Below, in pieces: positions 1,068 through 64,000 of a stretch of DNA of 64,000 nucleotides; the first letter of the stretch is position 1, and each line of letters starts with the position of its first letter. A model generated the notes under the pieces. The model had not been told where the DNA came from. It saw nothing but the letters and a program-made list of their open reading frames with translations, and did not search any database. A program made the translations under genes and the position numbers. The DNA lies in contig OZ024746.1 of the NCBI GenBank assembly GCA_964016885.1, positions 15,128,001 through 15,192,000 on the forward strand, in the 5' to 3' direction. The DNA comes from Eledone cirrhosa (Eukaryota).

Positions 1068-2447
1068 TTAAAACAGATATGGAATAATGCGGTGGGGTAC
1101 TTTGCGACAGTATTCGTTCCAGAACTGTCCATATTTTTTTCCACATTTATCATCATCCCGAAAACTTCTGTGTGTAAGTAAAATTAGTAAATGTATGACA
1201 TAAAAAAATGGCATTATACCTGAGAAACATGCAGGAATTGTCCAGAAGAATGCCAATAGAATTTCTGGAATGTAATGGAAATGTCGAGACCAACCCCACC
1301 AGCCTGAAACAAGTAAAATACTTTCTTTTTTTTCTCCTGACTCTAATGTGTAAGTTGCCCGAATGATAACTGGTTTCTTGCCCCATACTAAACATTTTCC
1401 ATTAGTAGCTCGGACTTTTTGTTTTTGCATGTCAGCCAAGTAATTTACTAGAAGTGCTGTCGTTCCTGCTAAAAAAAGGGAAATAGATGCTAATGGTCCT
1501 AGATGTATTGGGTTGTTGACTAAATACAAACTAACGGATGTATAGAAACCTGGTATGAAGACAAGACAGCCCCAGCAGATATAATACCCAGCTCTGTCTA
1601 ACATGATATCAATTGTGCGAAGATATCCAGCTTCCCACCAAAAAAATTTTGTAATGTATAAAAGCTGAAGTAAGGTAGATACCATATTACTATCAACCCA
1701 ACCATAAAGCTGGTAATTCTTGATTGAAAATATTAAAACTAGAAGGGCCCAAGACATCATTCCGAATCGACAATTGGTGAACACCTTAATATCAATACTA
1801 CAAATTCTTGGATAGAGTTCGGTGCCCCAGTAATAATCAAAAAGCACATTTCCTGAACTACCACAATCAGAGGAGGATGGTATTACCAGTCCTTTGATGT
1901 ATAATATCAGACAAAAGACAAAACTTAGTAGATTCAATGTACCTAAGATGTCACCAAACCGGTCGTAGATTATAGATACAGAAAGCCCATGCTTGTTGAG
2001 CATTATTTCAAGAAAAACAAGAACACTAATTGTGAGACAATAATATGTAAACCCATTGTCAATATAAATAGGTACATTGCCTTTTGGTGTGATTGGACCT
2101 TCAACTTGCTTTCCTGGTAAAAGCTTCAGTGTAACAATACCCCACAAACTGTATCCAAAAATCACGCTCAGGGCAAAACAACTTCCTAGTGAAACTTCAG
2201 TCCAAATGTTTAGGAGTCCATTAAACAGAGAGTCTTTAAATAAATATTGTAAGAAATGTGTAATATTTCCATCAAATTTGACAGCTGTATACCAAAGGAT
2301 CATCACTAAATTTGGAGTGAACAGCATAAGTAGCAATGGTACAAATGTATGATTAATGAAGAGTTTAATTCTGCTGTCAACAGGCTCAATTCTTGGTTCA
2401 TCTCTCACCGCCGTGCTCATCGGCTTCGTCACGTTTTTTCTCTTCAT
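1068..2447 (-). CDS. DHCR7: 7-dehydrocholesterol (sterol delta-7) reductase, ERG4/ERG24 family, DWF5-like; entire CDS in one exon
   Basis: Intact 459-aa multi-TM ORF with family motifs YWGTELYPR, DIKVFTNCRFGMMSWA, KFFWWEAGY, DRAGYYICWGCLV, LLVSGWWGWSRHFHYIPE, RDDDKCGKKYG..W..YC..V..RIIP. Pyrimidine tract + AG acceptor (2451-2452) 3 nt before the ATG implies an upstream non-coding exon. Confidence 0.93.
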   Translation of the reverse strand: MKRKNVTKPMSTAVRDEPRIEPVDSRIKLFINHTFVPLLLMLFTPNLVMILWYTAVKFDGNITHFLQYLFKDSLFNGLLNIWTEVSLGSCFALSVIFGYSLWGIVTLKLLPGKQVEGPITPKGNVPIYIDNGFTYYCLTISVLVFLEIMLNKHGLSVSIIYDRFGDILGTLNLLSFVFCLILYIKGLVIPSSSDCGSSGNVLFDYYWGTELYPRICSIDIKVFTNCRFGMMSWALLVLIFSIKNYQLYGWVDSNMVSTLLQLLYITKFFWWEAGYLRTIDIMLDRAGYYICWGCLVFIPGFYTSVSLYLVNNPIHLGPLASISLFLAGTTALLVNYLADMQKQKVRATNGKCLVWGKKPVIIRATYTLESGEKKESILLVSGWWGWSRHFHYIPEILLAFFWTIPACFSGIMPFFYVIHLLILLTHRSFRDDDKCGKKYGQFWNEYCRKVPHRIIPYLF

Positions 2448-3023
2448 GGTCTACAAGAAAGAAAAATAGAGACAAATAATATTTTCGTCTTTTGAGTATT
2501 TTACATTATATTTTACTTTCAACAATTTTTAAAATTTTATATATATTAATAATTACACCATGTGTATCTAGTTTGGAATGAATAAGTGCACCTTAATCCT
2601 CCATGTCAGAAGAAACGACTTAAAGAGTTTGTGTCAGGAAGGGCATCCGACTGTAAAACATTGCCTCAAAAAGTCTTGTCCAACTCATGCCAAAATGGAA
2701 AAGGAAAAGTTGACTTAAAAAATTGCTGGCCTTGTGGCAATTTTAGATTGAATTATCTAAAGGCACTACATATAACAGCAACAAGAGTTACGTCCCTTTA
2801 ATATCATGGTTAAAACATTTTCGTTCAGCAATGAGCACAAAGGTTGTGAAATGGTGGGAAGGGTACGTAGGTGCGTGGGGTGGCAGTTGTTATGAATATA
2901 ACATAAGGTTTGGGAATATTTATATTAATCTTGTAAAAAAACCCCAGACAAACACAACAAACAACAAACGTTCCACACAAGTACGGTTATAAAACGAAAT
3001 AATAGTTTTCTTAAATTTCTGAT

Positions 3024-13730: not shown

Positions 13731-14704
13731 GCGTCTAGTGTTTTGCTAATAGGCTTTTAATACCGCCGACAGAAAGATAAGGCCTAACATGAACCAATCA
13801 TGAACAGTTCATTGTTAACACTAAATCGTCATGCGCTTTATTTATTTCATAGCATGGCAAATCTCTCCTCCGTATTTATCGATTTATATGAAACAATCTC
13901 TCAATATTATCGATTTTATCTGAGAGGTAGCAATATTACAGATGTTTCCATATTTTAGCAGAGATGTATGTTGTTCTGTTGTTGATATATTTAACTTTGT
14001 TCCAACGATACAACAAACAACATCTTTCGATAAAGATGGCAACATAAATTCTTTGTTTCGATTTGACTCAAAGACTGTGTATGTGTGTGTGTGCGTGTAA
14101 GTGCGTCTGCTCCTGTGTGTGCATGTGTGTGCGTCTATGTGTGTGTGTGTGTGTGCATGCGCGCGTCTGCCAATGTATGTATGAATGCGTGGGGTGGGAT
14201 GGGATTGGGGAGGGGATGATGTGAACAGGAGGGATGTGCAGAGTGGAATGTTAGAACATTCCACTCTGCACCCAAACATTATTATAATGTGAGTGAAGCT
14301 CTACCTAAACCTTGCAAATATCGATCCTTAAAATATTATGTTCCAAATATATTCTTAAACAGATGATTGATTCGATTGGAAAAAAAAAAAAAAATCCATT
14401 TCCTCCAAAATACGCACAAATACAAAAACAAACAAAATCCCCAAACCCCAAGACCCTCCCCAGTCAGGGCAACGTTTATCCAGACACCTCCACCTTACCT
14501 GTCAATACATTTATCTCGGAAAAGAGAATAATTTTATAATGTTTTAAGTAATCCTTCATTGAAATAATTAGCATGTGAAATGTCTTTATTTTGAAAATAG
14601 GGGGTTATAGAAAAATTGGTCATTAGTTTGTTATTTAGACATATTTTGTAGCCAACTTCTGGACGAATTTGTATTCAAATACAATCATTTTTTTTCGTGC
14701 CGGT

Positions 14705-15250
14705 CGCCTTCAACACACCTGGTGTCTTTGGTCCCCGAATTGCTGCCTTCAACACACCTGGTGCCTTTGGTCCCCGAATTGCTGCCGTCGACACAGCTAG
14801 TGTCTTTGGTCCCCGAATTGCTGCCATCAACACACCTGGTGCCTTTGGTCCCCAAATTGCTGCCGTCGACACAGCTAGTGTCTTTGGTCCCCGAATTGCT
14901 GCCATCAACACACCTGGTGCCTTTGGTCCCCGAATTGCTGCCGTCGACACAGCTAGTGTCTTTGGTCCTCGAATTGCTGCCATCAACACACCTGGTGCCT
15001 TTGGTCCCCGAATTGCTGCCGTCGACACAGCTAGTGTCTTTGGTCCTCGAATTGCTGCCATCAACACACCTGGTGCCTTTGGTCCCCAAATTGCTGCCGT
15101 CGACACAGCTAGTGTCTTTGGTCCTCGAATTGCTGCCATCAACACACCTGGTGCCTTTGGTCCCCGAATTGCTGCCGTCGACACACCTGGTGTCTTTGGT
15201 CCCCGAATTGCTGCCGTCGACACAGCTAGTGTCTTTGGTCCTCGAATTGC
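14705..15250. repeat. 39-bp minisatellite, about 14 units, alternating A/B variants (78-bp higher order)
   Basis: Units tgctgccgtcgacacagctagtgtctttggtcc.cgaat and tgctgccatcaacacacctggtgcctttggtccc.aat alternate. Confidence 0.95.
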
Positions 15251-15344
15251 CGTTTTTACTCTGCAAAATCTGAAGGAATGCGTCCCACCCGAGGACGAAG
15301 CTTCGTGGCCGAGGCAGCATGTGTCGCTGGCTGTTCGTGGCCAT

Positions 15345-16888
15345 GTACAGCTGAGATATACCACCTAGAATCGGGTGAGTAATGACAGGGATACAGCTGA
15401 GATATACCACATAGACAGGGGTACAGCTGAGATATATCACATAGACAGAGGTACAGCTGAGATATACCACCTAGACTGGGGTACAGCTGAGATATACCAC
15501 ATAGACAGGGGTACGGCTGAGATATACCACAGAGACAGGGGTACAGCTGAGATATACCACATAGACAGGGGTACAGCTGAGATATACCACCTAGACTGGG
15601 GTACAGCTGAGATATACCACATAGACAGAGGTACAGCTGAGATATACCACCTAGACTGGGGTACAGCTGAGATATACCACATGGACAGGGGTACAGCTGA
15701 GATATACCACAGAGACAGGGGTACAGCTGAGATATACCACATAGACTGGGGTACAGCTGAGATATACCACATAGACAGGGGTACAGCTGAGATATACCAC
15801 CTAGACTTGGGTACAGCTGAGATATACCACCTAGACTGGGGTACAGCTGAGATATACCACATAGACAGAGGTACAGCTGAGATATACCACATAGACAGAG
15901 GTACAGCTGAGATATACCACATAGACAGGGGTACAGCTGAGATATACCACCTAGACTGGGGTACAGCTGAGATATACCACATAGACTGGGGTACAGCTGA
16001 GATATACCACATAGACTGGGGTACAGCTGAGATATACCACATAGACAGGGGTACAGCTGAGATATACCACCTAGACTTGGGTACAGCTGAGATATACCAC
16101 CTAGACTGGGGTACAGCTGAGATATACCACATAGACAGAGGTACAGCTGAGATATACCACATAGACAGAGGTACAGCTGAGATATACCACATAGACAGGG
16201 GTACAGCTGAGATATACCACCTAGACTGGGGTACAGCTGAGATATACCACATAGACTGGGGTACAGCTGAGATATACCACATAGACTGGGGTACAGCTGA
16301 GATATACCACATAGACTGGGGTTCAGCTGAGATATACCACATAGACTGGGGTACAGCTGAGATATACCACCTAGACAAGGGTACAGCTGAGATATACCAC
16401 ATAGACTGGGGTACAGCTGAGATATACCACCTAGACAGGGGTACAGCTGAGATATACCACATAGACAGAGGTACAGCTGAGATATACCACATAGACAAGG
16501 GTACAGCTGAGATATACCACATAGACAGGGGTACAGCTGAGATATACCACATAGACAGGGGTACAGCTGAGATATACCACATAGACTGGGGTACAGCTGA
16601 GATATACCACCTAGACAGGCGTACAGCTGAGATATACCACATAGACAGAGGTACAGCTGAGATATACCACATAGACAGGGGTACAGCTGAGATATACCAC
16701 ATAGACAGGGGTACAGCTGAGATATACCACATAGACAGGGGTACAGCTGAGATATACCACATAGACAGAGGTACAGCTGAGATATACCACCTAGACAGGG
16801 GTACAGCTGAGATATACCACATAGACAGAGGTACAGCTGAGATATACCACCTAGACTGGGGTACAGCTGAGATATACCACATAGACAG
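15345..16888. repeat. 30-bp minisatellite, about 51 units
   Basis: Unit gtacagctgagatataccac(a/c)tagac(a/t)(g/t)(g/a)g repeated head-to-tail. Confidence 0.97.
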
Positions 16889-17788
16889 GAGTATACAGTA
16901 TGTTGCTCCCTCTCTCTCCTTTACTTTCGCTATTCAATTTTTTTCTCTCTTTTTCGCTTTTTTTTAAAATACACAAACGTTGCTGGATTATAAAGTATTA
17001 AGTTTCACAAGTACAAAGAAAATTGGATTGATCCCAATTTGCTGAAACAACCACAAATATTTTATAAAAAGATACTTACGTTGAGACGTCTGGTTTAATG
17101 GTTAGTGTGTTCAGCTGCCGGTCATGAATTGAATTTAACAGCTTTATTTCACGTTGCTCCAATCGACCAAGCTGGCAAAAAGGTGTTGTACCTTCACACA
17201 CTGTGGCACACTGAATGAAAACTACGTTATGACTACACGTGTCTATGGAATGCTCATTCTTGCTGACTCTCTCTGCGAACTTACATTAAGGACCCCTCAC
17301 TGTATTTTAATTTCAAAAGCAGGTTCTTCCTTGAGTCAAACAACCGGAATAGTCGTCTTCGTATGCAACGGAGCTCAAACGACAGCACACTACTAACAAC
17401 TAGAAAAAACATGATTTCATTATATTTTAATATATCTATTATATACGTAACAGTTGAACAACCACCAAAAATAATTTTTGATACAATTGGCGTGGGTTGC
17501 AATGAAGAATGAAGCACTCTATAGATAGCAGTTGTGTAAGCCGTCTGTTGTTGGGATGGGATGTTTGTGTTGAGGGTGAATATATTTTCTTTCAGTCTAA
17601 CGTAATAACGAGATTAGTAGGTAGCTGAGCAATTGGAGGAGTTAGGTTTGTTACCTTTATTTTAAACAGACGAATATAAATGAAGAATATTCAAGGTGCA
17701 ATAAGTCGCCTTTACCCACCCGCACCTTCAACATGACAAACCATAACTAATATACACACAAAGGACATACTCTTGCAAACAACACATA

Positions 17789-25142: not shown

Positions 25143-27559
25143 TCTCTATATATATAAAACAGAGGATGTTTGTCTGTCTGTCATCATCATCATCATCATC
25201 AACGTTTAACGTCCGTGGACGCTTGCATGGGTTTGGACGGGGGTAGTCCCACTTGAGGCAAGAGTGATTGTCTTGCTCGCATAGGACTGTCTGGCAGGTT
25301 TTCTACAGTTGGATGCCCTTCCTAACACCAACCACATTTACAGTGTGGGTCTGGGAGGTTTTTACCGTGTTGCCTACACGGCCACATTACAGCGTGGACT
25401 GTGTGTTTTTTTGTCGTGACACCTACACGATCTCATTTGTTTCGGCCTGGATGGCGCGGCACCAACATAACTTTACATAGGACGGGGTGGTGTGGATGGG
25501 GTGGGGGTGGTGGGACGGGGTGTATTTTGTTAGAGATGCCTACTGGCTGGAGTAGGTTTTACTATATATTTAGGTAAGGCGGGTCTTCTCTGTTACTGAG
25601 TACCGCCAAAGGTCTCGGTCCAGTGACATTGTCTTGGAGAGGTGTAAGTGTGTGAGGTCGGAGTTTATCAGCTCGTCCCAGGTTTTTCTAGGTCTGCCTA
25701 TTCCGTGGCTACCGTCTATCTTTATTGCCCTGCACTTTGTTATACAGCTATCGACTTTCATGCGCATCACGTGTCCATACCAACGTAGCCTTCTCTCGAG
25801 TAAACAGCATCTGATCCCTCTTATCTCTAATTTTTTTCTTAGTTCGTTTATGCTTTGCCGTTCACGTATATTACTGTTACACATCCAGCGGAGCATGCAA
25901 GCTTCGTTCCTCTCTAGTCTGCGTATATCCTCTGCACACAATGCCCATGTCTCACTGCCATGCAACATTGCTGTTCGTATGCAGGCATCGTACAACCTGC
26001 CTTTCATTTTTAGGGAGAACCCTTTAGCAGCTAATAGTGGTATAAGCTCTCTGAACCTTTTCCAACCAGTTCTGACTCTAGCTACAGTACTTTCAGAGCA
26101 CCCTCCCCCACTGCTGATTTTATCGCCCAGGTAACGGAAGCTGTCCACTATTTCTATAGAACCCTCTGCGCAATTGAAAGAGCTAGTATTTTGTGGGCAC
26201 TTGCTGCTACTTATTGCACCAGAACACCGGCCACATGTAAAATCTATGTTCTTAGTTAGCTTACCTGTGATCCCACTACATCTTTTATGCACCCATACTT
26301 TGCATTTAGGACACAAAATGGAGTTTCTACCTACGCCTTTCCTACACACCGAGCACGACCATTTCCCAGAAGGGACCGCCGCCTTGTTTTCTTTCCTACA
26401 AACTAGAACTTTGGTCTTAGCCAGGTTAATTTTAAGTCCTTTTGACTCTAGGCCGTGCTTCCATGTTTGGAATTTCTTCTCTAGCTCGGCCATTGATTCC
26501 GCTATGAGTGTCAGGTCGTCTGCGTATAGGAGTTCCCATGGGCAGCCTGTCTTGAACTCCTCTGTTATAGCCTGAAGGGCAATAATAAATAGTAGGGGGC
26601 TGAGAACAGAGCCCTGATGGACGCCGTAAATCCTTAAAACTCAAGAAGTACCCGACTGATTTTTTTCAAACTTTACACATGCGTTACTTATATTTCTTGA
26701 AGTGCAATGGGCTAAAAAGAATTTAAACTTTTTCTGCCCTAGGGCCTGCATTAGGCGAAAAACCGCCTTTTTTAGGCTTTTTTGAGACGTAACTTAAAGA
26801 TAACCCACCCGATATCCTCGAAATTTGCAGCACACATTAGTCCCCTTGCATTGCTGTGGACAAAAAATTTCTGATTCCATTAATGGTTTCTAGGAAATTT
26901 ACAAATTAGCATTGGGCATTACATGCCATTTTCAATATAAACACTACTTAAATATCGTAAGTAATGTATATTTCGTTAAACATTTGGTTTATTTAACACA
27001 GGATACAAGACTTACTTACTTTTAAGCAGGACCATTTTCGGGGGATTGAGGAAATGAAGAGGACCTTAAAATTTTTGTCAGCGCTCTGTTAACGCTTCGT
27101 GCTTTCATCACGCGCAAATCCGGGCTCTGTGTGCGTTGACGTGTTATTGACACCGTAAAACTCACGTCTGTGCTACTTCTACTAAGACCCCTTTTGTTGC
27201 ACCTACACTGCAGTATGAACGCCCTGTGCAAGTACGCCGAACAGCGGTTGTGCTAATTCCGCGGTGATCCCTTTTGTCGCACCTTTGTTGCTGTGTAAAC
27301 GCAGTGCAACCAGTGCCGCCCAGTGTTTGTGCTAATTGCACTATGACCCCCTTCTGCTGCAGCTGCGTTACCACACTGATTTCGTCATCTCAATATCCCT
27401 ACTTAAACGTACATCCCTACTTGGTTTTCACACAATTGACTATATCGCTCCTGAGAATAAGGGAATTCAAAAAGTACACAGCTACATTCCTCAATCTTTG
27501 CATATGCATGTTGCTATTTCACGTTTCCTACCCCGTGCAACACCGGGTCCTGCTGCTAG
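25143..27559 (+). mobile_element. Non-autonomous Helitron carrying a nested RTE LINE
   Basis: 5' A|TCTCTATATATATAAAACAGAGGATG, resumes at ~26626 (taaatccttaaaactc), 3' hairpin ccccgtgcaacaccggg then CTAG|T at 27556-27560; homologous to the fragment at 42310-42500. Confidence 0.75.
25181..26625 (-). mobile_element. 5'-truncated RTE-clade LINE (RT C-terminal half, PHD finger, 3' UTR, (GAT)n tail)
   Basis: GVHQGSVLSPLLF, LLYADD, CSVCRKGVGRNSILCPKC..WVHKRC; protein very similar to 35375-38287; ends in (ATC)n on the + strand. Confidence 0.92.
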
Positions 27560-34900: not shown

Positions 34901-35374
34901 TAATACATAGATGGAAATTGTAATAGAAACTGTAGCGAGTCATGGTTCCTGATTTATGGAAGCAACTAAATATAAAGGTAATCATTAGAAGATGTTATCA
35001 GCATGTGCAATCATGGATTTTGATTTAGTGGCCAATGGCAGCTTCTTTTTCCATCTTTAAGGGTTTTCACCCTATTTTATAAGCTATTTTATAGCAACTC
35101 ATGAGTACACCATTCTTTATATATATTTAGTATCTGATAATGTGAAAGCTGAAACACTGACTGTACTAATGACTCTGCAGGACATCCATTACTGGTGAGA
35201 TCGATGTGGTTCATGTTTAACATCCCTATACAATATAGTTGTAGAATCTTGTCAACACATTACTTAAAGTTTCAGATAAACTGGAATGGGGAATAAGTAA
35301 TATAGTAATGATGAAATAAAGTAGTACAGCTGTTCAACGTAAATTCATTAAAAATATATTGAATATATATATAT

Positions 35375-38300
35375 AGAGTCCTTGTAGGAAAAAGCCAGTG
35401 CTACAAATTTTTCTGGGTGGGAAATGACGATGGGATGGGTGGTGTAGGTATACTATTAGCTGACAAGTGGGTAGATAAAGTAATCTCAGTGTACAGGGTA
35501 AATGCAAGAATCATTAAACTCAGACTAGTCCTGAATAAGACAATTACCACAATAATATCAGCTTACGCACCCCAATCGGGGCTGCCAGACGAACTTAAGG
35601 ATAGGTTTTACGAGTCCCTAATACACACTACTGCTCTAACAGACGACAAGGACTTCCTAATCATTGCAGGAGATTTTAACGGACACGTAGGTAAACACTG
35701 CGACGGCTTCAATAGAGTACATGGAGGCCATGGAGTTGGCACAAGGAATGAGGAAGGATTCAGACTTCTAGAATTCTGCGACGCCAATGACATGTCGATA
35801 TGTAACACAAACTTTAAAAAACCCGACAACCACCTGATCACCTATAGATCAGGGGAGCACTCTAGTCAGTTAGATTTTATCCTCATCAGAGGACGTGACA
35901 GATGGACGGTCGTAAACACAAAAGCCTTCCCTAGTGAGGAATGTACATCCCAACATAGCTTAGTTGTCAGCGACCTCACGGTCAGAACTAGACGAGCCCT
36001 GAAACAGAGGCCAACCTGGAGAAGAAAGATCTGGAAGCTGAAAGTCCCCTCAACCAGTAACAGATTTAAAGATATTTTACTCAACGCCTACGACAGTAAA
36101 GAAGAACAGATAGAGACATTTAACGTAGAAGAGAACTGGGAGTTCCTAAAAAATAACTTACTAGAGGCGACGGATGAGGTTTGTGGCTGGAGTAAGACCT
36201 CAAGCAGGAGGAGAGTGACTTGGTGGTGGAACAATAAGGTAGATGAAGCAGTCAAGGCCAAGAGACAGGCATGGAAAGAATGGAAGAACGGGGGGAGCAG
36301 GGTACATTACATAGAGACCAAGAGGGAAGCTAGGCGACAAGTATACTTAGCTAGGAGGGAAGCAGAGGATAGAAAATTCAAGCATGTTTTACAACGTGAG
36401 GACCAGAAACAGGAGGTATTCAAGATTGCGAGGCAGTGTGTCAGAGATAGTTGTGATGTCATTGGAGAGAAGTGTATCCGGAATGATAAAGGTGAGCTTG
36501 CCCTCACAAGTGCTGAGAAGAAAGATGCATGGAAGAGTCATTATGATAGATTACTAAATGAGGAGAATGCATGGGAAGAAGAGACCCTACCCCACGTAGA
36601 CCCTATAGAGGGACCAGCAGTACAAGTCAGCGGCAGCGTAGTAAGTAAGGCAATCAGAGATATGAAGATAGGGAAGGCAACCGGTCCATCGGGTATAGCT
36701 GCCGAGATGCTGAAGGCATCTGGGTCTGTAGGTCACACTATAACCACACGTATCGTTAACCAGGTAATACTAGAGGGGGCCATACCAAAAGATTGGTGCA
36801 GTAGCATCATTGTCAACTGCTACAAAGGTAAAGGCGATGCACTAGATAGAGGAAACTATAGAGGTATAAAGTTGATGGACCAGGTCATGAAAGTAACAGA
36901 AAGAGTTATAGCACAGCTGATTAGGGACCGGGTGAATATAGACGAGATGCAATTTGGGTTTGTTCCAGGGAAAGGCACCACTGATGCGCTCTTCCTTGTG
37001 AGGCAATTACAGGAAAAGTACCTAGCTAAAAGTAAGCCACTCTACTTGGCATTTGTCGACCTTGAGAAAGCCTTTGACAGAGTTCCACGTGCAGTAATCT
37101 GGTGGGCTCTTAGAAAACTAGGAGTAGATGAATGGCTTGTGAAAGTGGTACAAGCCATGTATAGGGGAGCAGTCAGCAAAGTTAGGATTGGCAATGAGTA
37201 TAGCGAGGAATTTAGCGTACAGGTTGGGGTCCACCAGGGCTCTGTTCTTAGCCCTCTCCTGTTCATCATAGTCCTGCAGGCAATAACGGAGGAGTTTAAG
37301 ACCGGATGCCCATGGGAACTCCTGTATGCTGATGACCTCGCACTCATAGCTGAATCTATGGTAGAACTAGAGAATAAATTCCAAACCTGGAAGCAGGGAC
37401 TAGAGAGAAAGGGCCTCAAAGTCAACATGACAAAGACTAAGGTCCTTATAAGTAGACGAGAAAACAGAACCCAGATCCCCTCAGGGAAATGGCCTTGCTC
37501 AGTATGTAGGAAAGGTGTAGGTAGGAACTCCATTCTTTGCCCCAAATGCAAACAATGGGTACACAAGAGATGTAGCGGGATCTCAGGAAGCTTAATTAAG
37601 AATGTAGGATTCACATGCAGCAGCTGTGCTGAAACAGCAAGCAAACAGCCACAGGAAACAAGTACCACCAATCTCTGGGAGGGCCCTGTAGAAACAGTAG
37701 ACAGCTTCTGCTACCTAGGTGACCGAATTAGCAACGGAGGTGGGTGCTCAGAAAGTACAATAACTAGGGTAAGAACGGGATGGAAGAAGTTTAGGGAACT
37801 ACTACCACTGCTAGCTGCAAAAGGCTTCTCCCTCAGAATGAAAGGCAGACTGTATGATGCGTGTATCCGAACAGCGATGTTGCATGGTAGTGAGACCTGG
37901 GCGCTGAAGGTGGAAGACTTACGTAGATTAGAGAGAAACGAAGCCTGCATGCTCCGATGGATGTGTAACAGTAATATACGTGAACGACAAAGCATAAATG
38001 AATTGAGAGAGAGACTGAGCATAAGAGGAATCAAATGCTGCGTGCAGGAGAGGCGGTTACGCTGGTATGGACATGTGATGCGTATGAAGGATGACAGCTG
38101 CATAAAAAGGTGCAGAGCACTAGAAGTTGATGGAAACCGCGGAGTGGGGAGACCCAAGATGACTTGGGATGAGGTGATAAAAGCCGACCTTACCCAACTA
38201 CACCTCTCAAAGTCAATGACACACGACCGTGACTTCTGGCGTCACGCAGTAATACAGGGTACCCGACCTCCCATGGGTACATGCTGAAGCATATAAACAA

Positions 38301-43481: not shown

Positions 43482-46400
43482 TGTAGCCGGACGCATTCGG
43501 ACTTACCTTGCGTCTCTCTGGTCCACGTGCGGGTACTTTCCGCTTGCGTCTGTCTTCGCACGCCCGTCTCCTTCCAGGGCGTATGGCTAAGAGGCCCCTG
43601 TTGACTGTCTGGTCCCTCGAGTCGCCCCCGTCCTCCTTCTTCCGGTCAGGCGTCCTCCAACTTCCGCAAATCCCCCTCCCACGGCAGCTCTACACCTCCC
43701 CTCTATCTCGCGGCAGCCCCCCCCCTGATCTCAAGAATCAATCCCCCCCATCACACTGCTCCATCTCAAAATCCGCCATCCACATAGGTTGGCGGCGGCT
43801 CCGTTGCGATCTCCGCACTGTTGGAGAGGCACTTTCATTTTCCTCTTCCTCGGAGTCCGTCACCACAACGACTTTACGGACGTTCAAGACGTGACGTGGC
43901 ATTCCGTCCACAGACGTTTTGGGAATTTACGGCGGTTACCATTCCTTTTCCCCATTGAGATGTGCAACGCGCGTTCGGTGGCTTGACCCATACCTCTTCG
44001 CCCACTCGTACGAGTGCGCTCTCTCTCTCCACCGGCTGCTGTGGTACCGTGCACGGGTGTCGCCATTCATATCTGTATATTGCCCTGTGCGGGTCCGACT
44101 CCTCGGCCTATCCCACCCGCGGAGACATGTTGTACCAGAACACTGCTTCCGTTGGCGAAATGTGCCCCCTTTCCGCCATGGTCTTGATCGTGCGATGATG
44201 TCTCTCCACGATCCCATTTCCGCTCGGCCTGTATGCCGCTCTGAAGAAGCGGTTCACCTTCCACTTGTCAAACATTTCCCTCAGCGCCTCCGAGCGAAAC
44301 GCCGTACTGTTGTCCATCAGCAGTTCACCCACAGGGTCCCGCTCCAAGAATATCTATCTCAGTGTCCGCACGATTTCCTCCGCAGTCCCTGTCTTCCTTT
44401 CTCTCCATATCGCCATCCGCCCCGGCCCACAATCGACCATCGAAAGATACGTTCCTTGTCGATAGTGTGTCACGTCCACCGCTAATCGCTTCCAGTTATG
44501 CTCCACCGGGATGCTTCCTGTCTCGTGCAAACCCGGGGCAGCGTCGATAGACTGTCATCTGTCGAAACCTCCGACCACTCTCTGGACACTCTGTCTGCTA
44601 ACATCAGAGTCGATTCTTCTGGCTAGGAACAGGGTCATATCCACCCCCATGTGGTGCATGGCGTGCGTGCAGTCCCTTCAACTCCGAATCACTCAGCCGA
44701 CACACTGCCGCTATCACCTTCACCCTGGTTAATACGTCTGCCCTGTTTTTTTCTGAGGGCACAAAAAACACACTCAACTCCAGACCGAACTCAGTGGTCA
44801 GCTGTCCCAGAGTTTCCAGGCGGCGCTTTATCAACATTTCTGCTGCCCCTCTCGTTCGCACCCTCCTCTCACTGGTAAGCACTGATTTCACGCATCCGAG
44901 TACAGTGGCCGAGTTAGTGCGGATTTCTATGGTGCGCAGCCCCCATCTCAGGGCGAGATTCACCCCTCTCAGCACAGCATCCAATTCGGCCACGTTGATG
45001 TGGTTGTAGTCCTCCTTCTTCCTCAGCCAAGCGGCGTCTTCGACCTCGACGCCCCTATCTCCAGAGTAACCCCTAGTGCTATGCTACTGGCATCACACCA
45101 TACGGTCCCACTCTCCGATTTGGGGACGTACCAGCGTCCTTTCACTGGGTCATCCGCCTTTACCCTCTCCACAATTTCCTGGATCATGGCCACTGTCCTC
45201 TCTCCAACCCTGTCAGCCCAGCTCACTGCGTCTGCTCGTCTCTTGACATAGCTGCATGCCGTCCGGAGCCATCCTGCGATCGGATAGTGGCCCACCAATT
45301 TACTACACATTGAGAAGAGTTCCCGTCTATCCATATCGGGGCCCCATTTCCGGGACTTCGTTACCCCTCCGAAACACGAGTGTGCCCGTCTTATCCCTTT
45401 GCAACCCGAGTCCTAGCGCGGCTCCTCCTTCCATCGCCTCCGGCGGTTTCGTGGCCAGCCCGAATCTTCCCAAGTGGCCTGAGACTTCTGCTGCTGAAAC
45501 CACCGTCTCGTCCACCAAGATTTCGTTGATGTAGGAGTTGGTAGCCCTCTTCACCTTGTCCGCTTGCCCCAGAATGGCCTTGAGGACCGTCGCCATGGTT
45601 TTTGGCGCAGAGTTAAACCCGAAGCCAAGCCTGGTCAGACAGTATGTCTGGCCCTTATACTGACCAGCAGCTGATATTTCCACAGCTTCTCATCCACGTG
45701 TAACTGCAGATATGCCGACTTTAAGTCGACAATCGTGGAGGCTCCCGTCATTCGTTTCCACTCTCGCAAAGTTTCCCCGCAAACATCCGTGACCTCACCG
45801 CCTGTGTGACATGACACGTGTTCGTTCAGCTCACGAAAGTCCAGCACCGGCCTAACCTTGTTCTTCGTGGGTTGCACCACTGCCATCAGCGGCAACACTC
45901 CACACTTCACCTCCTCCTTTCAAGGAAGCAGTATACCCTCTTCGATCCATCTCTGTGCCTCTCCCTCAAACTCGCTTTTGGTATTTCCTTTCAGGGTATG
46001 CTGATAGCAGCCCATTCTGTTCTTCAGCGTTGGTGGATCTCCCTTCCAGTACCACTCAACTACTCACCGCTGCCCATCGAACACCGCCCTGAAATCCTTC
46101 TCCTGTATGGTATTTTCTTCGTGAATCGCCCTGTTCTTCGTGGATTCTCTCAGCACGCTCACAGTACATAATGTCCTCTCGCTACCAAACGTCACCACGA
46201 CTTCAGTCACTGTAACACCTCCAAGGCAGCCAATCGTGTCCATGCCCATTGCTACATCGATTCCGTCCACCACCTGGTCAATCACGATCGCCCGAAGCCT
46301 AATTTTTCTTCCCCGTACCACCATCGACACCTCGCTGGTACTTCTGCATCTAATCTCTCTGCCCTCGACTGCCCTTGTACTGCTCACCCCGCTCCACTTT

Positions 46401-47622
46401 TTAACCACCTCCGTGGTCACTATTGTTGTGCAACCCGTGTCCACGAGTGCTCGCGGTGGCTTCCGTTCCACAAAAACTTCCACTACGGGCAGCGACTGCA
46501 AAGGCGCATCTACTCGCCTCCAGGGGTGGCTACCGGCGCAGTAGCCCCCTGGTCGCAATTAATTTCGATGTGGCCTGGCCACTTGCAGCGATAGCAGACT
46601 ATAGCTGGCTTCAGCTCTCTGCAGTCCCTTGCCATGTGCGGGCCCTGGCACCTGAAGCACCGCTCTCCGAACGCACGCGGACGACTACTCACAGCGGCTG
46701 GTCTCCTTTCGACATACGTTGGTTGCTGTCGACTGCCATGGGCTTCCGTCGCTGCCAGCGTTGCAACACTCCACCTCGTGTCCTGTGTTACTATGCGGGT
46801 CTGTGCAATGAGCAGCTGTTGGAGCTTCACGGAGATTTCCTCGGGGAACCCGTTCATAAAAGCCAACCGCACGGCGCATTCGCATTCTACCGCGAATCCC
46901 ACCAACGTAGCCAACCGCCGTAACTCTGTCGTGGACACGTCCACGTGCTCTCCCTGCCATCTCGCTCTGCCTAGCTTGGCAAAAGCAACATACGGTGAAC
47001 GCTTCCTTAAGTCGCTGTCCTATCCTCTCCGCGTTCAGTTGGTCGCTCTCGTCCATCTCGAGGTACAGTGCTAGGGCATCCTCGTCGAGATATAGACCGA
47101 TCAAACCAGCAACGCTGTCAATGCCTTTCAGCGAGGCGACCAATGTGACCTTTCTCAACCAGGCCACATCATCTCCTTCGCCGTTAAAAGCCTTGATCGT
47201 CTCGCTATTTAATCTCAGTTTCACTGCCATCTCCCCTGCGAGATCGGAAAAAAAATCAACAACGATACCCCACGAAAGAGAACAAAAAAAAAAAAAAACA
47301 TTAAAAAAAAAAGCTAAACTAAAGGGCTGCCGTGCTGGGAGTAAAAATGCCGAAAGATGGGAAATTTCATTAAACGCCAAAATAGCTTGTAGCCGGACGC
47401 ATTCGGACTTACCTTGCGTCTCTCTGGTCAACGTGGGGGTACTTTCCGCTTGCGTCCGTCTTCGCACGTCCGTCACCTTCCAGGGCGTATGGCTAAGAGG
47501 CCCCTGTTGACTGCCTAGTCCCTCGAGTCTACCCCGTCCTCCTTCTTCCGGTCAGGCGTCCCACAACTTCCGGCAATCCCACGGCAGCTCTACACCCCCC
47601 TCTATCTCGCGGCAGCCCCACA
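43482..47622 (-). mobile_element. Complete compact Gypsy-like LTR retrotransposon (4.14 kb), degraded gag-PR-RT-RH-INT
   Basis: LTRs 47388-47622 (5') and 43482-~43720 (3'), outer ends TG...CA; 5-bp TSD TCAAC at 43477-43481 and 47623-47627; gag ATG 47230 with two zinc knuckles; ALVDTGC, WCDAS, LLMDN...GNGIVER; multiple frameshifts; inserted in a SINE tail. Confidence 0.95.
47376..47387 (-). promoter_or_regulatory. Non-canonical primer-binding site, complementary to tRNA-Phe(GAA) nt 1-12 (one G:U)
   Basis: AGCTATTTTGGC immediately after the LTR-terminal CA on the minus strand. Confidence 0.7.
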
Positions 47623-47959
47623 TCAACTTCCCCCCTCTGCCAATTTCTTAGCCATATGCCTACGTTAGAAAGAATTATTAAAGTCACAGTGGATTCCAAG
47701 AACCATTAGTGTCGAACAAAATGCCTATTTCTTCCAGCGCTTTATTTTCCGAGTTCAAATCCCACCAAGGTCAACTTTACCTTTCATTCTTTTGGGGTTG
47801 ATATAATCGATTTTCTCCTTCCATCAAATTGCTGGCCTATGCCTTAATTAGAATACATTATTAAAATTTCTTCATTTTCAGATAATAGCTGATTAAATAC
47901 GATCATAAAACTCTGAGTACCTATGAAAACAGATGCTTAGTTGCCATGTATTTTAAGTA

Positions 47960-50900
47960 ATGTCTGCCTGACTGTATGTCTGCCTGACTGTATGTCTGCC
48001 TGACTGTACGTCTGCCTGACTGTATGTCTGCCTGACTGTATGTCTGCCTGACTGTATGTCTGCCTGACTGTATGTATGTCTGACTGTATGTATGTCTGTC
48101 TGTATGTATGTATGAATGTCTGTCTGTATGTATGTCTGTATGTCTGCCTGACTGTATGTATGTATGTATGAATGTCTGTATGTATGTATGTGTGTATGTC
48201 TGCCTGACTGTATGTATGTCTGTATGTCTGTCTGTATGTATGCCTGACTGTATGTATGTATGTCTGCCTGACTGTATGTATGTCTGTATGTATGTGTGTA
48301 TGTCTGCCTGACTGTATGTATGTCTGTATGTCTGTCTGTATGTATGCCTGACTGTATGTATGTCTGTCTGTATGTCTGTATGTATGTATGTCTGCCTGAC
48401 TGTATGTATGTCTGTATGTCTGTCTGTATGTATGCCTGACTGTATGTATGTCTGTCTGTATGTCTGTATGTATGTATGTCTGCCTGACTGTATGTATGTC
48501 TGCCTGACTGTATGTATGTATGTATGTCTGTATGTATGTCTGTATGTCTGCCTGACTGTATGTATGTCTGCCTGACTGTATTTATGTCTGACTGTATGTA
48601 TGTCTGTCTGTATGTATGTATGAATGTCTGTCTGTATGTATGTCTGCCTGACTGTATGTCTGTCTGTATGACTGTATGTATGTCTGTCTGTATGTATGTA
48701 TGAATGTCTGTCTGTATGTATGTGTGTATGTCTGCCTGACTGTATGTATGTCTGTATGTCTGCCTGACTGTATGTATGTCTGCCTGACTGTATGTATGTC
48801 TGCCTGACTGTATGTATGTCTGCCTGACTGTATGTATGTCTGCCTGACTGTATGTATGTCTGTATGTATGTCTGTATGTCTGCCTGACTGTATGTATGTC
48901 TGTATGTATGTCTGTATGTCTGCCTGACTGTATGTATGTCTGCCTGACTGTATGTATGTCTGCCTGACTGTATGTATGTCTGCCTGACTGTATGTATGTC
49001 TGTATGTATGTCTGTATGTCTGCCTGACTGTATGTATGTATGTATGTCTGTATGTATGTATGTATGTCTGCCTGACTGTATGTATGTCTGCCTGACTGTA
49101 TGTATGTCTGCCTGACTGTATGTATGTCTGCCTGACTGTATGTATGTCTGCCTGACTGTATGTATGTATGTCTGTATGTATGTCTGTATGTCTGCCTGAC
49201 TGTATGTATGTCTGTATGTATGTCTGTATGTCTGCCTGACTGTATGTATGTCTGCCTGACTGTATGTATGTCTGCCTGACTGTATGTATGTCTGTATGTC
49301 TGCCTGACTGTATGTATGTCTGTATGTATGTCTGTATGTCTGCCTGACTGTATGTATGTCTGCCTGACTGTATGTATGTCTGTATGTCTGTATGTATGTC
49401 TGTATGTCTGCCTGACTGTATGTATGTCTGTATGTCTGCCTGACTGTATGTATGTCTGTATGTATGTCTGTATGTCTGCCTGACTGTATGTATGTCTGCC
49501 TGACTGTATGTATGTCTGTATGTATGTCTGTATGTCTGCCTGACTGTATGTATGTCTGCCTGACTGTATGTATGTCTGCCTGACTGTATGTATGTATGTA
49601 TGTCTGCCTGACTGTATGTATGTCTGTATGTATGTATGTATGTCTGCCTGACTGTATGTATGTATGTCTGCATGACTGTATGTATGTATGTATGTATGTC
49701 TGTATGTCTGCCTGACTGTATGTATGTCTGTATGTATGTATGTATGTCTGCCTGACTGTATGTATGTCTGTATGTATGTATGTATGTCTGCCTGACTGTA
49801 TGTATGTCTGTATGTCTGCCTGACTGTATGTATGTCTGTATGTATGTCTGTATGTCTGCCTGACTGTATGTATGTCTGCCTGACTGTATGTATGTCTGTA
49901 TGTATGTCTGTATGTCTGCCTGACTGTATGTATGTCTGTATGTATGTATGTATGTCTGCCTGACTGTATGTATGTATGTATGTCTGCCTGACTGTATGTA
50001 TGTATGTATGTATGTCTGTATGTCTGCCTGACTGTATGTATGTCTGTATGTATGTCTGTATGTCTGCCTGACTGTATGTATGTCTGTATGTATGTATGTA
50101 TGTCTGCCTGACTGTATGTATGTCTGTATGTCTGCCTGACTGTATGTATGTCTGTATGTATGTCTGTATGTCTGCCTGACTGTATGTATGTCTGCCTGAC
50201 TGTATGTATGTCTGTATGTATGTCTGTATGTCTGCCTGACTGTATGTATGTCTGCCTGACTGTATGTATGTCTGCCTGACTGTATGTATGTATGTATGTC
50301 TGCCTGACTGTATGTATGTCTGTATGTATGTCTGCCTGACTGTATGTATGTCTGTATGTATGTCTGTATGTCTGCCTGACTGTATGTATGTCTGTATGTA
50401 TGTCTGTATGTCTGCCTGACTGTATGTATGTCTGCCTGACTGTATGTATGTCTGTATGTCTGCCTGACTGTATGTATGTCTGCCTGACTGTATGTATGTA
50501 TGTATGTCTGTATGTATGTCTGTATGTCTGCCTGACTGTATGTATGTCTGCCTGACTGTATGTATGTCTGCCTGACTGTATGTATGTATGTATGTCTGCC
50601 TGACTGTATGTATGTCTGCCTGACTGTATGTATGTCTGCCTGACTGTATGTATGTCTGCCTGACTGTATGTATGTCTGCCTGACTGTATGTATGTCTGCC
50701 TGACTGTATGTATGTATGTATGTCTGTATGTCTGCCTGACTGTATGTATGTCTGCCTGACTGTATGTATGTCTGTATGTATGTCTGTATGTCTGCCTGAC
50801 TGTATGTATGTCTGCCTGACTGTATGTATGTCTGCCTGACTGTATGTATGTCTGCCTGACTGTATGTATGTCTGCCTGACTGTATGTATGTATGTATGTC

Positions 50901-51100
50901 TGCCTGACTGTATGTATGTCTGCCTGACTGTATGTATGTCTGCCTGACTGTATGTATGTCTGCCTGACTGTATGTATGTCTGCCTGACTGTATGTATGTC
51001 TGCCTGACTGTATGTATGTATGTATGTCTGCCTGACTGTATGTATGTCTGCCTGACTGTATGTATGTCTGCCTGACTGTATGTATGTATGTATGTATGTA
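47960..51100. repeat. 3.1-kb tetranucleotide-built array (TATG/TCTG/CCTG/ACTG; core 20-mer tgtctgcctgactgtatgta)
   Basis: Visible directly; the 870- and 1050-aa ORFs are translations of this repeat. Confidence 0.97.
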
Positions 51101-52249
51101 TGCATGTATATATTTTTATGGAGCGAGAGACTCCATTAAGACATCTCTCTAGGAGAAGGTCACACTTACATAAAACCTGCGACTCCGTTTTCATCCAATG
51201 ATGTAGATCAGTTTTTCTTTTTAAGTAAATTCATTCTATGTTCAGAGAGTGGGATTGGCCCCCTGCAAAGCTTTTACTCACTTAAAAAAGCTTCAAACAC
51301 AGACATCGCTTGATATGTGACATTGCTGGCCATAGACAAGTCCCTGGCAGGACTAAAAAGCAACGTCCATGATACTCATACTTAAGTATCAAGTGATGGC
51401 ATTAATCGAAATCGAGTTGCAGTCATCATCATCATGTATGTATATATAATTTAGACAACACCAAGTAAGTATATAGTTTTGTATGCCTGTATGTGTTTGT
51501 ATGCAGGTGTGTGTGTTATTGCTTGTGTGGACCTGTATGTTTTGAGTTATATGTGTACATATGCATATGTTTCCGTATCTATATATGTGTGTGTATATGC
51601 AGTTATTATCTGATGAATTAATGAAATATTTTACATATTTTTACAGTTCCTTTAATGGTAACTTCCTAACTACCCGTGCCCTTTTTGGTTTTGTGAAGCC
51701 CAGCTTCTCAAGATTTGTACTGAGGCAATTAGTAATATATCCAAGGGCCCCAAATGATCACAAGAACAAATCTAAATGTATAGTCGGGGTGGAATAACTG
51801 CAGATTCCTCATTAGTTCAGTATAAACTCCAGTGCCCCTGCTGAGAAGTGTGATTGACTGTGCAGACCTTTTTCCCCTTTTCCTTTCTTTGATATAATGT
51901 CTTTTTTTAAAATATAAATTGCGTTTATTTTAAAAAAATACGCCCCCCCTCTTCACAACAATAACAACAAACATGGCAGTATCGGTAGAGGGTCTGACGC
52001 CATGCTTTGCAGCAAAGAGTTACGGCCCTTTATGGTTTGAGTTCAAATCCCGTCGAGGTTAACTTTGCCTTTCATCCTTACGGGTCGATAAAATAAAGTA
52101 CCAGTAATGTACTGGAATCGATTTAATCGACTTTCCCCTCCCCAAAATTGCTGGCCTTGTGCCTATATAAGAAACCATTATTATTATTGCTTTGTTATTA
52201 TTTTTATTAAACTGGAAAATGTGCCCTAATGAACATCAAGCCGCTACCT

Positions 52250-60358: not shown

Positions 60359-60665
60359 AATACATTCATACATACACACATACGTATAAGCATAAATAAA
60401 GATATATATACTGTGGGTATGGTGTGGCGTGCGGTGGCCGGAAGCGGGGGAGTGCTCGACCGGAAGGGTGCTTGGCCGGAAGGATGCTCGACCGGAACGG
60501 TCAGCAGATGGGTCTCTCTCTAGTGGTGACCAGCAACGATGTGGACGCGAGTTTTGGCAGCTCCCGGTGTTAAGGAGTTGGACGTACGTGGAAGCGGAGA
60601 AACCAGCAGTGGGATTTAGCGGCGCCTATGAAAAGCGGTAAGTGAGATAGCTTGTTCTAACCACA

Positions 60666-60677
60666 AGCTATTTCGGC
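60666..60677 (+). promoter_or_regulatory. Non-canonical primer-binding site, exact complement of tRNA-Phe(GAA) nt 1-12
   Basis: AGCTATTTCGGC directly after the LTR-terminal CA; reverse complement GCCGAAATAGCT. Confidence 0.75.
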
Positions 60678-60699
60678 ACTGGAAACTGAGATCTGATTG

Positions 60700-60731
<32 letters not shown>

Positions 60732-61493
60732 CTGGAAAAACAGAGAGGAGTCTGTTGCTTTTTTTTATTTTTATCACGTACCGCAAGACAAATTAGAAGA
60801 TGGCGACAAGACTACGAACAGGGTATTTACCGGGGAAGGTGATGTCGCCTGGCTGAGAAAAGTCCGGCTGGTCGCAAGCTTGCAGAAGATAGAAGATGTG
60901 GCTGGCCTCATGGCACTGTACCTCGAGGGGGACGCGTTGGTATTCTTCCTTGAGTTGGACGAACACAGCCAAAGAGATACGCAAAAGATTGAGAGGCGCA
61001 TGATGGAAGCGTTCGCAGGGGGACCGTTAGCCGCTTTCGCTAAGCTGGCAAGAATTAGATGGAACGGTGAACGCGTTGACATTTTCGCAGCGGAAATACG
61101 GCGATTGGCCATGTTGGCTGGATATCAGGTGGAATGCGAACGCACGGTGCGGTTGGCGTTCATAAATGGATTTCCAGACGACATAGCGGTGAAACTGCAG
61201 CAAGTCCCGGGTTACAAAGAAATGGAAATGCGTTCACTGGTGGAACAAGTCCGGATCATAGCAGAAGATGCCAAGAAGAGTGTTACGGCGATAGCAACTA
61301 CAGAGGCTCAAGACAGCTGGCAGCGAAATGGTGAACGGGAGGCAACCACGGCACGCGGTCGCCCGCGAATGTTTAGAGGTCGCTGTTTTCGGTGCCAGGG
61401 CCCACACATGGCTAGAGACTGCAGAGAGTCAAGGCCGGAAATAATATGCTACCGGTGTAAGCGACCAGGTCACATCGCTATTAACGGCGACCA

Positions 61494-61537
61494 GGGAAAC
61501 GATCCAAGGGGAACTACTGCACCGGTAGTTGCCCCTT
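61494..61537 (+). promoter_or_regulatory. -1 programmed ribosomal frameshift signal (gag-pol)
   Basis: G GGA AAC in gag frame, 5-nt spacer, stem-loop aaggggaactac...gtagttgcccctt; the -1 frame is open into the protease ORF at 61557. Confidence 0.8.
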
Positions 61538-64000
61538 ACGAGTAGAGGCGCTGCCCGTGGTGGAAGTCTTCGTGAGGGGAAAGCCACAGCGAGCCCTCGT
61601 GGACACGGGCTGTACGACGACACTGGTGACCGCGGGGGTGGCGCAGAGGTGGAGAGGGAAGAGCAGCGTAAGGGCAGTCGACGACAGGAAAATTGAATGC
61701 CGAGGTCGCAGCGAGATGGAAATAGCGGTACGGGGAAGGAAAATAAGGCTTTCTGCCATCGTAGTAGACAGGGTGGTGGATGGGATCGGCGTGGTTATGG
61801 GCATGGACGCAATTGGCCGTCTAGGAGGCGTCACAGTGAACAACGTCGGTGTGTCGTTTGGCGCCGCTGCATCGGTATGCGCTGTGAGTGCGCGACAGGA
61901 GAACCAGAAGGCCCACGAGGAGAAATACCCCGCTTACACTGTGCAGGACAAAGACTTCAAGGCCGTGTTCGATGGGCAGCGATGGGTTGTTGAGTGGTAC
62001 TGGAAGGGATAACCACCAACACTGAAGACCAAAGTGGGCTGCTATCAACACACATTGAAGGGAAACATTAGGAGCGAGTTCGAGCGAGAGGTAGAGAGAT
62101 GGATTGAGGAGGGCATACTGCTTCCTTGGGAATACTGCTTCCCTGGAAAGAGGAGGTGAAGTGCGGAGTATTGCCGTTAATGGCGGTGGCGCAACCCAAG
62201 AAGAACAAGGTGAGGCCGGTGCTGGACTTTCGGGAGCTGAACGAGCACGTGTCATGCCACACGGGCGGCGAGGTCACGGATGTCTGTGGGGAAACCCTGA
62301 CTTGGGGAGACGCATGACTTGGGGTTCAGCAATCGTAGATCTAAAGTCGGCATACTTGCAATTGCATATAGATGAGAAGCTCTGGCAGTATCAGCTGGTC
62401 AGGTATAAGGGCCGGACATATTGCCTGACCAGGCTCGGTTTCGGGCTGAGCTCCGCACAGAAGATCATGGCGGCGGTCCTCAAGACCATTCTGGGAAAGG
62501 CCGACAAGATGAAGAGGGCCACTAACTTCTATATTGACGACATCCTAGTGGACGAGTCTGTGGTGTCGGCGGCGGAGGCCACGAGCCATTTACAGGGGTA
62601 TGGACTGGCTGCGAAACCGTCAGAAGCGTTAGAGGGAGGAGCCGCGCTGGGACTTAGGCTACGGCGAGACAGGACGGGCGTCTTGGTATTCCAGAGGGGA
62701 AATGAAGTTCCAGAACTGGGCCCAAGTAAGAGTAGGCGGGAGCTTTTCTCGGTGTGTGGAAAGTTGGTGGGTCACTACCCGATTGCTGGGTGGCTCCGGA
62801 CGGCATGCAGCTATGTCAAGAGACGAGCGGGAGGAGTGACTTGGAGTGACAGAGTGGGAGAGAGGACGGTGACCATGATGCAGGAGATCGTGAGGAGGGT
62901 GAAGGCCGACGACCCAGTGCGGGGACGCTGGTATGTTCCCAAATCACAGAGCGGGACCGTATGGTGTGATGCCAGCAGCATAGCGCTGGGTGTCACGTTG
63001 GAGATAGGAGGTGTTGAGGTCGAGGATGCAACCTGGCTTAGGAAGAAGGACGACTGCAACCACATCAATGTGGCCTAACTGGACGCAGTGTTGAGAGGGG
63101 TGAACCTCGCCCTGAGGTGAGGACTGCGCACCATCGAGATACGCACCGACTCGGCTACTGTACTCGGATAGGTGAGATCAGTGCTCACCAGTGAGAAGAG
63201 AGTGCGAACGAGAGGGGTGGCGGAGATGCTGATAAAGCGCCGCCTGGGAACTTTAGGAGAGCTGGCCACCGAGTTCGACCTGAGGCTGAGCGTAGTTTTC
63301 GTGCCCTCAGAGAAAAATAGGGCGGACGTCTTAACTAGGGTGAAGAAAGCCGAATGTAAGCGCCGGGGGAGGTAGAAGATGAGATAGCTGCCGTGTGTCG
63401 GCTGACCGAATCGGATCTGAAAGGGTTGCATGACATGCACCACATGGGATAGGAGCCTGTTCCTAGCCAGGAGAATCGACTCGGACGTTAACAGACACAG
63501 TGTCTCAAAGGGTGGTTAGAGGCTGCGTCCGATGTCAGTCCATTGATCCCGCCCCGGGTGTGCACTAAACGGGAAGCCTCCCGGTGGATCGCGACTGGAA
63601 GCGATTGGCGGTGGATGTAACGCACTACCGACAGGGAACGTACCTCTCGATGGTCGACTGTGGACCAGGACGGATGGCGATATGGAGGGAGATGAAGACT
63701 GGAACGGCCGAGGAAATCATGCGGACGTTGAGAGAGGTGTTCTTGGAGCGGGGCCCTGCGGACGAACTGCTGATGGACAACAGCGCAGCGTTCCGCTCGG
63801 AGGCGCTGAGGGAGATGATCGATGGATGGAAGGTGGACCGTTTCTTCAGAGCAGCGCAGAGGCCGAGCGGGAATGGAATTGTGGAGCGACACCACCGGAC
63901 GATCAAGGCAATGTCGGAGCGGGGCCATATCTCACCAATGGAGGCAGTGTTCTGGTACATGTCCCCTCGGGTGGGACAGCTCGAGGAATCGGTGCCACAC

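Follow-up and report, generated by a model that had tools for sequence, protein, structure and literature searches.

A conserved 12-nucleotide site at the 5' LTR edge of DUF7047 retrotransposons is complementary to tRNA 5' ends and most likely marks a new type of primer

The window, by which the whole 64,000-nucleotide stretch of the Eledone cirrhosa genome is meant, holds two LTR retrotransposons, A and B, that are complete end to end, each of about 4.2 kb with TG..CA ends and a 5-bp target site duplication (TSD). Element B is on the forward strand and continues past the window end:

60407..60411, + strand: 5' TSD of element B, TATAC; the second copy is 3' of the 3' LTR, outside the window
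60412..60665, + strand: 5' LTR of element B, 254 bp, TGT..ACA; boundary set by the partner LTR and the TSD
60666-60677, + strand: putative primer-binding site of element B, AGCTATTTCGGC, the exact complement of tRNA-Phe(GAA) nucleotides 1-12; abuts the LTR with a spacer of 0
60697..61545, + strand: gag frame of element B (stop to stop) with zinc knuckles; from the ORF list and PF00098
61485..62012, + strand: protease frame and start of pol of element B (PF13975); the in-frame stop at its end breaks pol in this element
62311..63078, + strand: RT palm (YIDD), DUF7047 (predicted thumb helices) and start of RNase H of element B; stop at end
63079..64000, + strand: remaining RNase H and integrase region of element B, broken, continuing past the window; from inverted similarity to element A and the domain order of a related copy

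Element A is on the reverse strand:

47623..47627, - strand: 5' TSD of element A, GTTGA; second copy at 43481-43477
47388..47622, - strand: 5' LTR of element A, 235 bp, TGT..ACA; from the partner LTR and the TSD
47387-47376, - strand: putative primer-binding site of element A, AGCTATTTTGGC, with one C>T at a CpG relative to the tRNA-Phe complement; abuts the LTR
43760..47375, - strand: internal region of element A (gag with zinc knuckles, protease, RT, RNase H, integrase), interrupted by stops and frameshifts
43482..43735, - strand: polypurine tract and 3' LTR of element A (LTR at about 43723-43482, its 5' TGT lost in a G run)

The 3' LTR of element B was located 375-629 bases past the window end, which gives an element of 4218 bp whose LTRs are identical at 243 of 254 bases. 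Element A is about 4140 bp long, its LTRs agree at 220 of 234 aligned bases, and the pol frames of both copies are broken. An earlier sequence-only reading of this DNA had noticed that the same 12-mer follows the 5' LTR in both elements with no spacer, and this was borne out, the boundaries now being fixed by the partner LTRs and the 5-bp TSDs. Its description of the LTRs as otherwise dissimilar needs correction: a 43-nt LTR stretch is alike and the pol regions are 74-83% identical; as the elements belong to related families, A and B alone are not independent evidence. Within the window the 12-mer has only two exact matches, those of elements A and B, and three matches at up to one mismatch, against a shuffle mean of 0.48.

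The same reading had stated that metazoan tRNA-Phe(GAA) begins with the exact complement of the 12-mer, and this holds for the host genes. A pattern for the tRNA-Phe 5' end gave 210 matches in the genome and none in the control, ARAGORN called tRNA-Phe(GAA) at all six loci scanned, and Rfam agreed for the one locus tested. Over all its bases (12/12) the site is the reverse complement of nucleotides 1-12 in the host tRNA-Phe(GAA) genes. Pairing ends exactly at the LTR edge, since tRNA nucleotides 13-15 would need CTG and the LTR ends in ACA. The host tRNA-Phe genes also occur together with tRNA-Asn genes in a long tandem array with a unit of about 1.26 kb (G000:C4:117366467-117580000), and the host genes for elongator tRNA-Met(CAU) and tRNA-Lys(UUU) are clustered and contain introns of about 20 nt (L232, L195; G000:C2, C1).

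The single T in the site of element A had been thought to preserve pairing as G:U, an explanation that proved unnecessary. As C outnumbers T at this CpG by 514 to 26 among the 540 genomic matches to LTR end plus site, and four other copies with the LTR end of element A carry C (L025, L034, L038, L088), the T is probably the result of CpG decay after insertion and not a functional G:U variant.

Those 540 matches, obtained genome-wide with ACA followed by the site, compare with 2 for the reversed control. Among the first 30 of them, gag is downstream in 28, behind at least five different LTR ends. A sample blind to the site was also drawn, comprising 40 copies from 150 listed DUF7047 matches and mostly skipping loci already in the pattern list. 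The site was exact in 25 of these copies, had one mismatch in 8 and two mismatches, at damaged junctions, in 2, and was absent from 2; the remaining 3 had no gag start within the stretch. Conservation of the 12-mer, on which the sequence-only reading depended, was thus upheld, with at most one mismatch in 33 of these 40 domain-selected copies. Across these 33 copies conservation falls from 0.91-1.00 inside the site to 0.55-0.70 right after base 12, and the TSD is 5 bp in 18 of the 24 copies scored. Sites of Lys, Thr or Met type gave 21 scattered matches in the window's genome, and none of the 20 fetched was near gag, PR or RT; the control count for this pattern search (1318) was inflated and uninformative. 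Two copies, L075 and L100, have longer direct repeats (about 310-375 bp) on either side and may have inserted into another repeat or its LTR.

A site that adjoins the LTR without a spacer and has a length similar to that of the Tf1 self-primer might be thought to pair with the 5' end of the element's own transcript, and one U5 stretch of family B does pair with six bases of the site (ten with G:U). Against this, the longest Watson-Crick run between the site and its own LTR was 4-7 nt in all ten LTRs compared, none exceeded shuffles when G:U was allowed (fraction of shuffles reaching it 0.085-0.99, 10 LTRs), and the site is common to unrelated LTRs. Self-priming of the Tf1 type was rejected on the lack of an LTR complement above chance in 10 of 10 LTRs and is very improbable; the transcript 5' end had been named as a possible better match for the 12-mer, and none turned up in the LTRs compared. 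In family B, the U5 end (window 60645-60672) and the first 6-10 bases of the primer site are able to form a hairpin across the LTR edge, a possible competitor of the tRNA; this hairpin is absent in family A and does not rise above shuffles.

The RT region was then used to follow the lineage into other organisms. At E<=1e-30 it matched 449 clusters (50% identity), and matching proteins were named from octopods, Argonauta, Aplysia, Plakobranchus, Oratosquilla, Palaemon, Petrolisthes, Watersipora and Trichuris, with named homologues in Octopus species at 67-78%. With 449 clusters, the DUF7047 lineage appears to be large, and it appears to be unnamed. Euglenozoa are named in three records among atlas matches to the RT-RH part, which serve as a lead only.

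Of 100 relatives found in a scan of metagenomes, 80 (37-66% identity) were retained; 30 of these were without 1400 nt upstream of RT and went unscored, leaving 50 evaluable loci. The 12-nt site is carried by 42 of the 50, which are about 40-58% identical in RT, in 41 cases found by pattern and in one (L162) by eye. The 41 fit the pattern AGCTR-NNNN-GNC, preceded by CA or GA and located 1.3-1.9 kb upstream of RT; this pattern is post hoc, having been written after the relatives' junctions were inspected, and matched 17 times in about 370 kb of control sequence. The nine loci missed by the pattern are L162 with its variant site, L163, which starts past the site, L150 and L188, which look damaged, and five without an upstream gag. 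Where LTR pairs could be assembled (L140, L143, L147, L154) the site again adjoins the LTR. L147 comes from an annelid metagenome run, and mapping of run X1 on it confirmed the site with no differences, for this one contig. In many distant relatives (L112-L191) and in both window elements, GATC and then a purine tract precede the 3' LTR, and this is a second conserved putative cis signal of the lineage.

The metagenome sites vary mainly opposite tRNA positions 4-7 and hardly at all opposite 1-3 and 8-12, a pattern of variation like that of tRNA acceptor stems. Eight of the 42 sites are the tRNA-Phe complement. The sites of L161 and L169 are exact complements of nucleotides 1-12 of tRNA-Lys(CUU) of the window's genome. 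The L162 site is exactly complementary to the intron-bearing elongator tRNA-Met(CAU) of that genome and departs from the Phe site at five bases, among them a matched change opposite position 12 (U12>G12). Exact complementarity also holds for the L171 and L185 sites, here to a human 5' tRNA-Lys fragment described in the accessible part of PMC3710361. In all, 13 of 42 sites were matched to a eukaryotic tRNA and 29 were without a match among the tRNAs compared, which were those of the window's genome and the human fragment; the 29 are predicted to correspond to host-specific variants of tRNA-Phe or -Lys. Genes for tRNA on viral contigs begin with the complements of three unmatched sites, a result that was not counted as support, the pattern having been designed for them and the viruses not being the hosts; no relative was found in the set of viral contigs. 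None of the sites at the 42 metagenome loci begins with TGG. Only 3 of 41 metagenome loci have a T at base 13, and the host tRNA-Phe genes have A at -1; pairing with a pre-tRNA leader was rejected, base 13 not being complementary.

Judged by these matches, the site follows the 5' ends of three or more different tRNAs. Since its types are scattered over a quick RT-RH tree (44 rows), the primer tRNA would seem to have changed several times with the 12-nt register kept. The sequence-only reading had proposed a 12-nt 5' fragment of tRNA-Phe as the primer; this is supported for Phe, but a restriction to Phe is too narrow, and as relatives match the 5' ends of tRNA-Lys and tRNA-Met the reading was widened to the first 12 nt of a tRNA.

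The position of the site at the LTR edge, its exact 12-nt length, its conservation across the lineage and its tracking of tRNAs are all observed, and the feature is real and lineage-wide. The explanation that fits them best is that tRNA nucleotides 1-12 (of tRNA-Phe here) serve as the minus-strand primer, and this is held to be probable. Some of the same facts could be read as those of a tRNA mimic or a regulatory site (for packaging, translation at the gag start or targeting by tRNA fragments), with priming achieved otherwise: the last seven bases of the 12-mer are the tRNA's own 3' acceptor strand, and an ATG lies within 26 nt downstream in 39 of 41 loci. Such a reading is improbable, however, as the 12-mer fills the exact primer position with no rival candidate site, the pairing stops precisely at the LTR edge, and the D-stem part (nucleotides 8-12) covaries with the tRNA in L162, which mimicry of the 3' strand leaves unexplained.

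For priming by the tRNA 5' end, the following course can be proposed. The element RNA would invade the acceptor and D stems, displacing the 3' acceptor strand and pairing with tRNA nucleotides 1-12. A cut between nucleotides 12 and 13 would then leave a 3'-OH exactly at the LTR edge, from which RT would extend into U5 with no spacer, giving a strong-stop cDNA flush with the CA of the LTR. Plus-strand synthesis would run off the 5' end of the primer, and this run-off would explain the fixed length of 12 nt with no need for a modified-base stop.

Tf1 RNase H cleaves its own 11-nt self-primer. Since three tRNAs in different hosts share one register, and by analogy with Tf1, the element's own RT-RNase H is favoured as the enzyme that would cut after nucleotide 12, in a trans version of Tf1 self-priming, a proposal with about an even chance of being right. 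All four acidic residues of RNase H are invariant in 43 of 43 Pol proteins; this permits the proposed cut without showing it, as ordinary reverse transcription needs them too.

The primer might instead be made by the host, either as a 5' tRNA fragment that is cut in the D loop, anneals and has its unpaired 3' tail trimmed to nucleotide 12, or by a host nuclease such as RNase P acting on the misfolded tRNA in the hybrid. This account fits all the sequence observations equally well, and RNase P cleavage has reportedly been proposed for the copia half-tRNA. That 5' tRNA fragments exist is documented in the accessible part of PMC3710361. It is nevertheless a distinctly less favoured possibility, as the cut position would be the same across tRNA-Phe, -Lys and -Met and many hosts, for which a ruler borne by the element is simpler. 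A fixed position could also be had with no nuclease at all if RT primed from the 2'-OH of nucleotide 12 of an uncut tRNA, yielding a branched RNA-DNA; retrons provide a precedent, and 2'-OH priming has been a proposal for half-tRNA elements. For a retrovirus-like RT, in which 3'-OH priming is the rule, this seems improbable.

Three primer types of LTR elements are distinguished in the accessible part of PMC6317226: the whole tRNA 3' end, the half-tRNA and the self-primer. The proposed primer has something in common with each. With canonical 3'-end priming it would share the use of a host tRNA, a site adjoining the 5' LTR and a primer tRNA that switches over evolution. The difference, which the sequence-only reading had rightly pointed out, is that the site lacks TGG and is not directed at a tRNA 3' end: the complement of the 3' end of this tRNA-Phe with CCA is another sequence. 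Canonical priming was rejected on the absence of a TGG start and of any 3'-CCA match. IAP elements primed by tRNA-Phe are described in the accessible sections of PMC7472051 as using the canonical 3' end.

Half-tRNA priming is known from Ty1/copia elements, namely copia, Ty5, Osser, Bianca and fungal Helenus, in the accessible parts of PMC6317226 and PMC10886601; the former gives it only for Copia and the latter has 3'-end and anticodon-loop sites only. As in copia and Ty5, the primer would come from the 5' part of a tRNA, leave the CCA end unused and need a cut inside the tRNA. There, however, the tRNA is cut within its anticodon stem or loop and an internal stretch of it pairs with the site, whereas here nucleotides 1-12 are paired and the predicted cut is in the D stem; half-tRNA priming was rejected on this difference, the site not pairing with the anticodon stem-loop region. 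The likeness to Tf1/sushi elements is in the pairing of an RNA's 5'-terminal bases with a site at the LTR edge and in the need for cleavage to free the primer (accessible parts of PMC5445492 and PMC6317226), the difference being that a host tRNA would act in trans here in place of the element's own transcript, no LTR complement having been found.

The affiliation of the elements was examined with a related copy that encodes a Pol of 961 aa. This Pol contains PR, RT, DUF7047, an RVT_3-type RNase H and rve, in the order PR-RT-RH-IN. With two TG..CA LTRs, a TSD, a PPT, gag, PR, RT, RNase H and a DDE integrase, the elements are LTR retrotransposons of Ortervirales type. No match to Peptidase_A17 (PF05380, the practical marker of BEL/Pao) was found in this Pol at E<=1, and its absence speaks against BEL/Pao membership; Ty1/Copia membership was rejected because RT precedes the integrase. 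With Ty3/Gypsy (Metaviridae) the elements share the domain order, TG..CA ends, a 5-bp TSD, an HHCC-DDE integrase and two gag knuckles, the last being a feature of the Mag clade of Ty3/Gypsy. They differ in carrying DUF7047 and RVT_3: the 961-aa Pol gave no match to the Gypsy RNase H profile RT_RNaseH (PF17917/PF17919), which ordinary Gypsy elements of the same genome do match, and RT identity to four such loci is 26-28% over about 117 residues. Two CX2CX4HX4C knuckles are present in gag at 27 of 41 loci, and the first position of YxDD is Y in 39 and F in 4 of 43 Pol proteins.

In a structure model (mean pLDDT 77.8, pTM 0.52) DUF7047 forms three helices after the palm, directly followed by RNase H. 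As these helices are what separates palm and RNase H in the model, DUF7047 is likely to be the RT thumb, with the tether absent. The model also predicts an SH3-like strand set at Pol residues 867-903, at the integrase C-terminus. Fold and PDB searches gave generic retroviral RT and IN matches only, at 11-15% identity, and did not place the lineage.

Troyka elements (Kuafuorterviruses) are likewise a divergent LTR lineage of aquatic animals with the order PR-RT-RH-IN and with neither envelope nor tether, according to the accessible parts of PMC12440569 and PMC11673190. Those sources give them CG..CG ends, a 3-bp TSD, a CX2CX8-10HX4C knuckle and (I/V/L)ADD, whereas the present elements have TG..CA ends (TGT..ACA), a 5-bp TSD, CX2CX4HX4C and (Y/F)(I/V)DD; membership was rejected on termini, TSD, knuckle and RT motifs. 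The accessible main text on Troyka (PMC12440569) makes no mention of a primer or PBS.

In the literature searched, a scope outside which Repbase, GyDB and most subscription journals fall, no description of the priming mode or of the lineage was found. The search took in the accessible parts of PMC6317226, PMC10886601, PMC7472051, PMC5445492, PMC12859917 and PMC13191261; a term search of the accessible text of PMC6238403 returned nothing on a PBS, and the readable supplements of PMC11673190, PMC6238403 and PMC8556966 do not contain the lineage motifs.

On the comparisons above, the site most likely represents a new primer type for LTR retrotransposons. If the proposal is true, a 12-nt 5'-terminal tRNA primer would be the fourth type, linking half-tRNA priming with Tf1 self-priming, and would be, to our knowledge, the first tRNA-fragment primer outside Copia. 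It would offer a small, defined substrate (a 12-bp RNA duplex, a tRNA and an RT) with which to approach the long-standing question of which enzyme cuts the primer. Tools that seek only 3'-CCA sites will score DUF7047 elements as PBS-less, and these elements would evade 3' tRNA fragments, though 5' fragments could target them. The picture may be drawn more widely, as an unnamed DUF7047 lineage of superfamily level with hundreds of families across aquatic animals, whose RT-RNase H opens a host tRNA, cleaves it behind nucleotide 12 and uses the 5' 12-mer for priming, as a fourth kind of primer and the trans counterpart of Tf1, and which escapes silencing by 3' tRNA fragments; taken as a whole, this is a tentative suggestion that may well fail in one part or another.

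The window has other features besides elements A and B. An intronless ORF of 460 aa at 1068-2450 (- strand) falls in the sterol reductase family ERG4/ERG24 (PF01222, E 1e-68). Animal genes of this family do not usually consist of a single exon, and the ORF may be a retrocopy or a transferred gene. A non-LTR retrotransposon at 35363-38287 (+ strand) has an open frame of 974 aa for an endonuclease and an RT with a PHD-like finger, and an inverted fragment of it, 75-77% identical, is found 10 kb away at 25570-26640 (- strand). Long simple tandem repeats, including minisatellites of 30-48 bp, occupy 14611-16967 and 47921-51230, the latter with an array of 8-bp units that adjoins element A.
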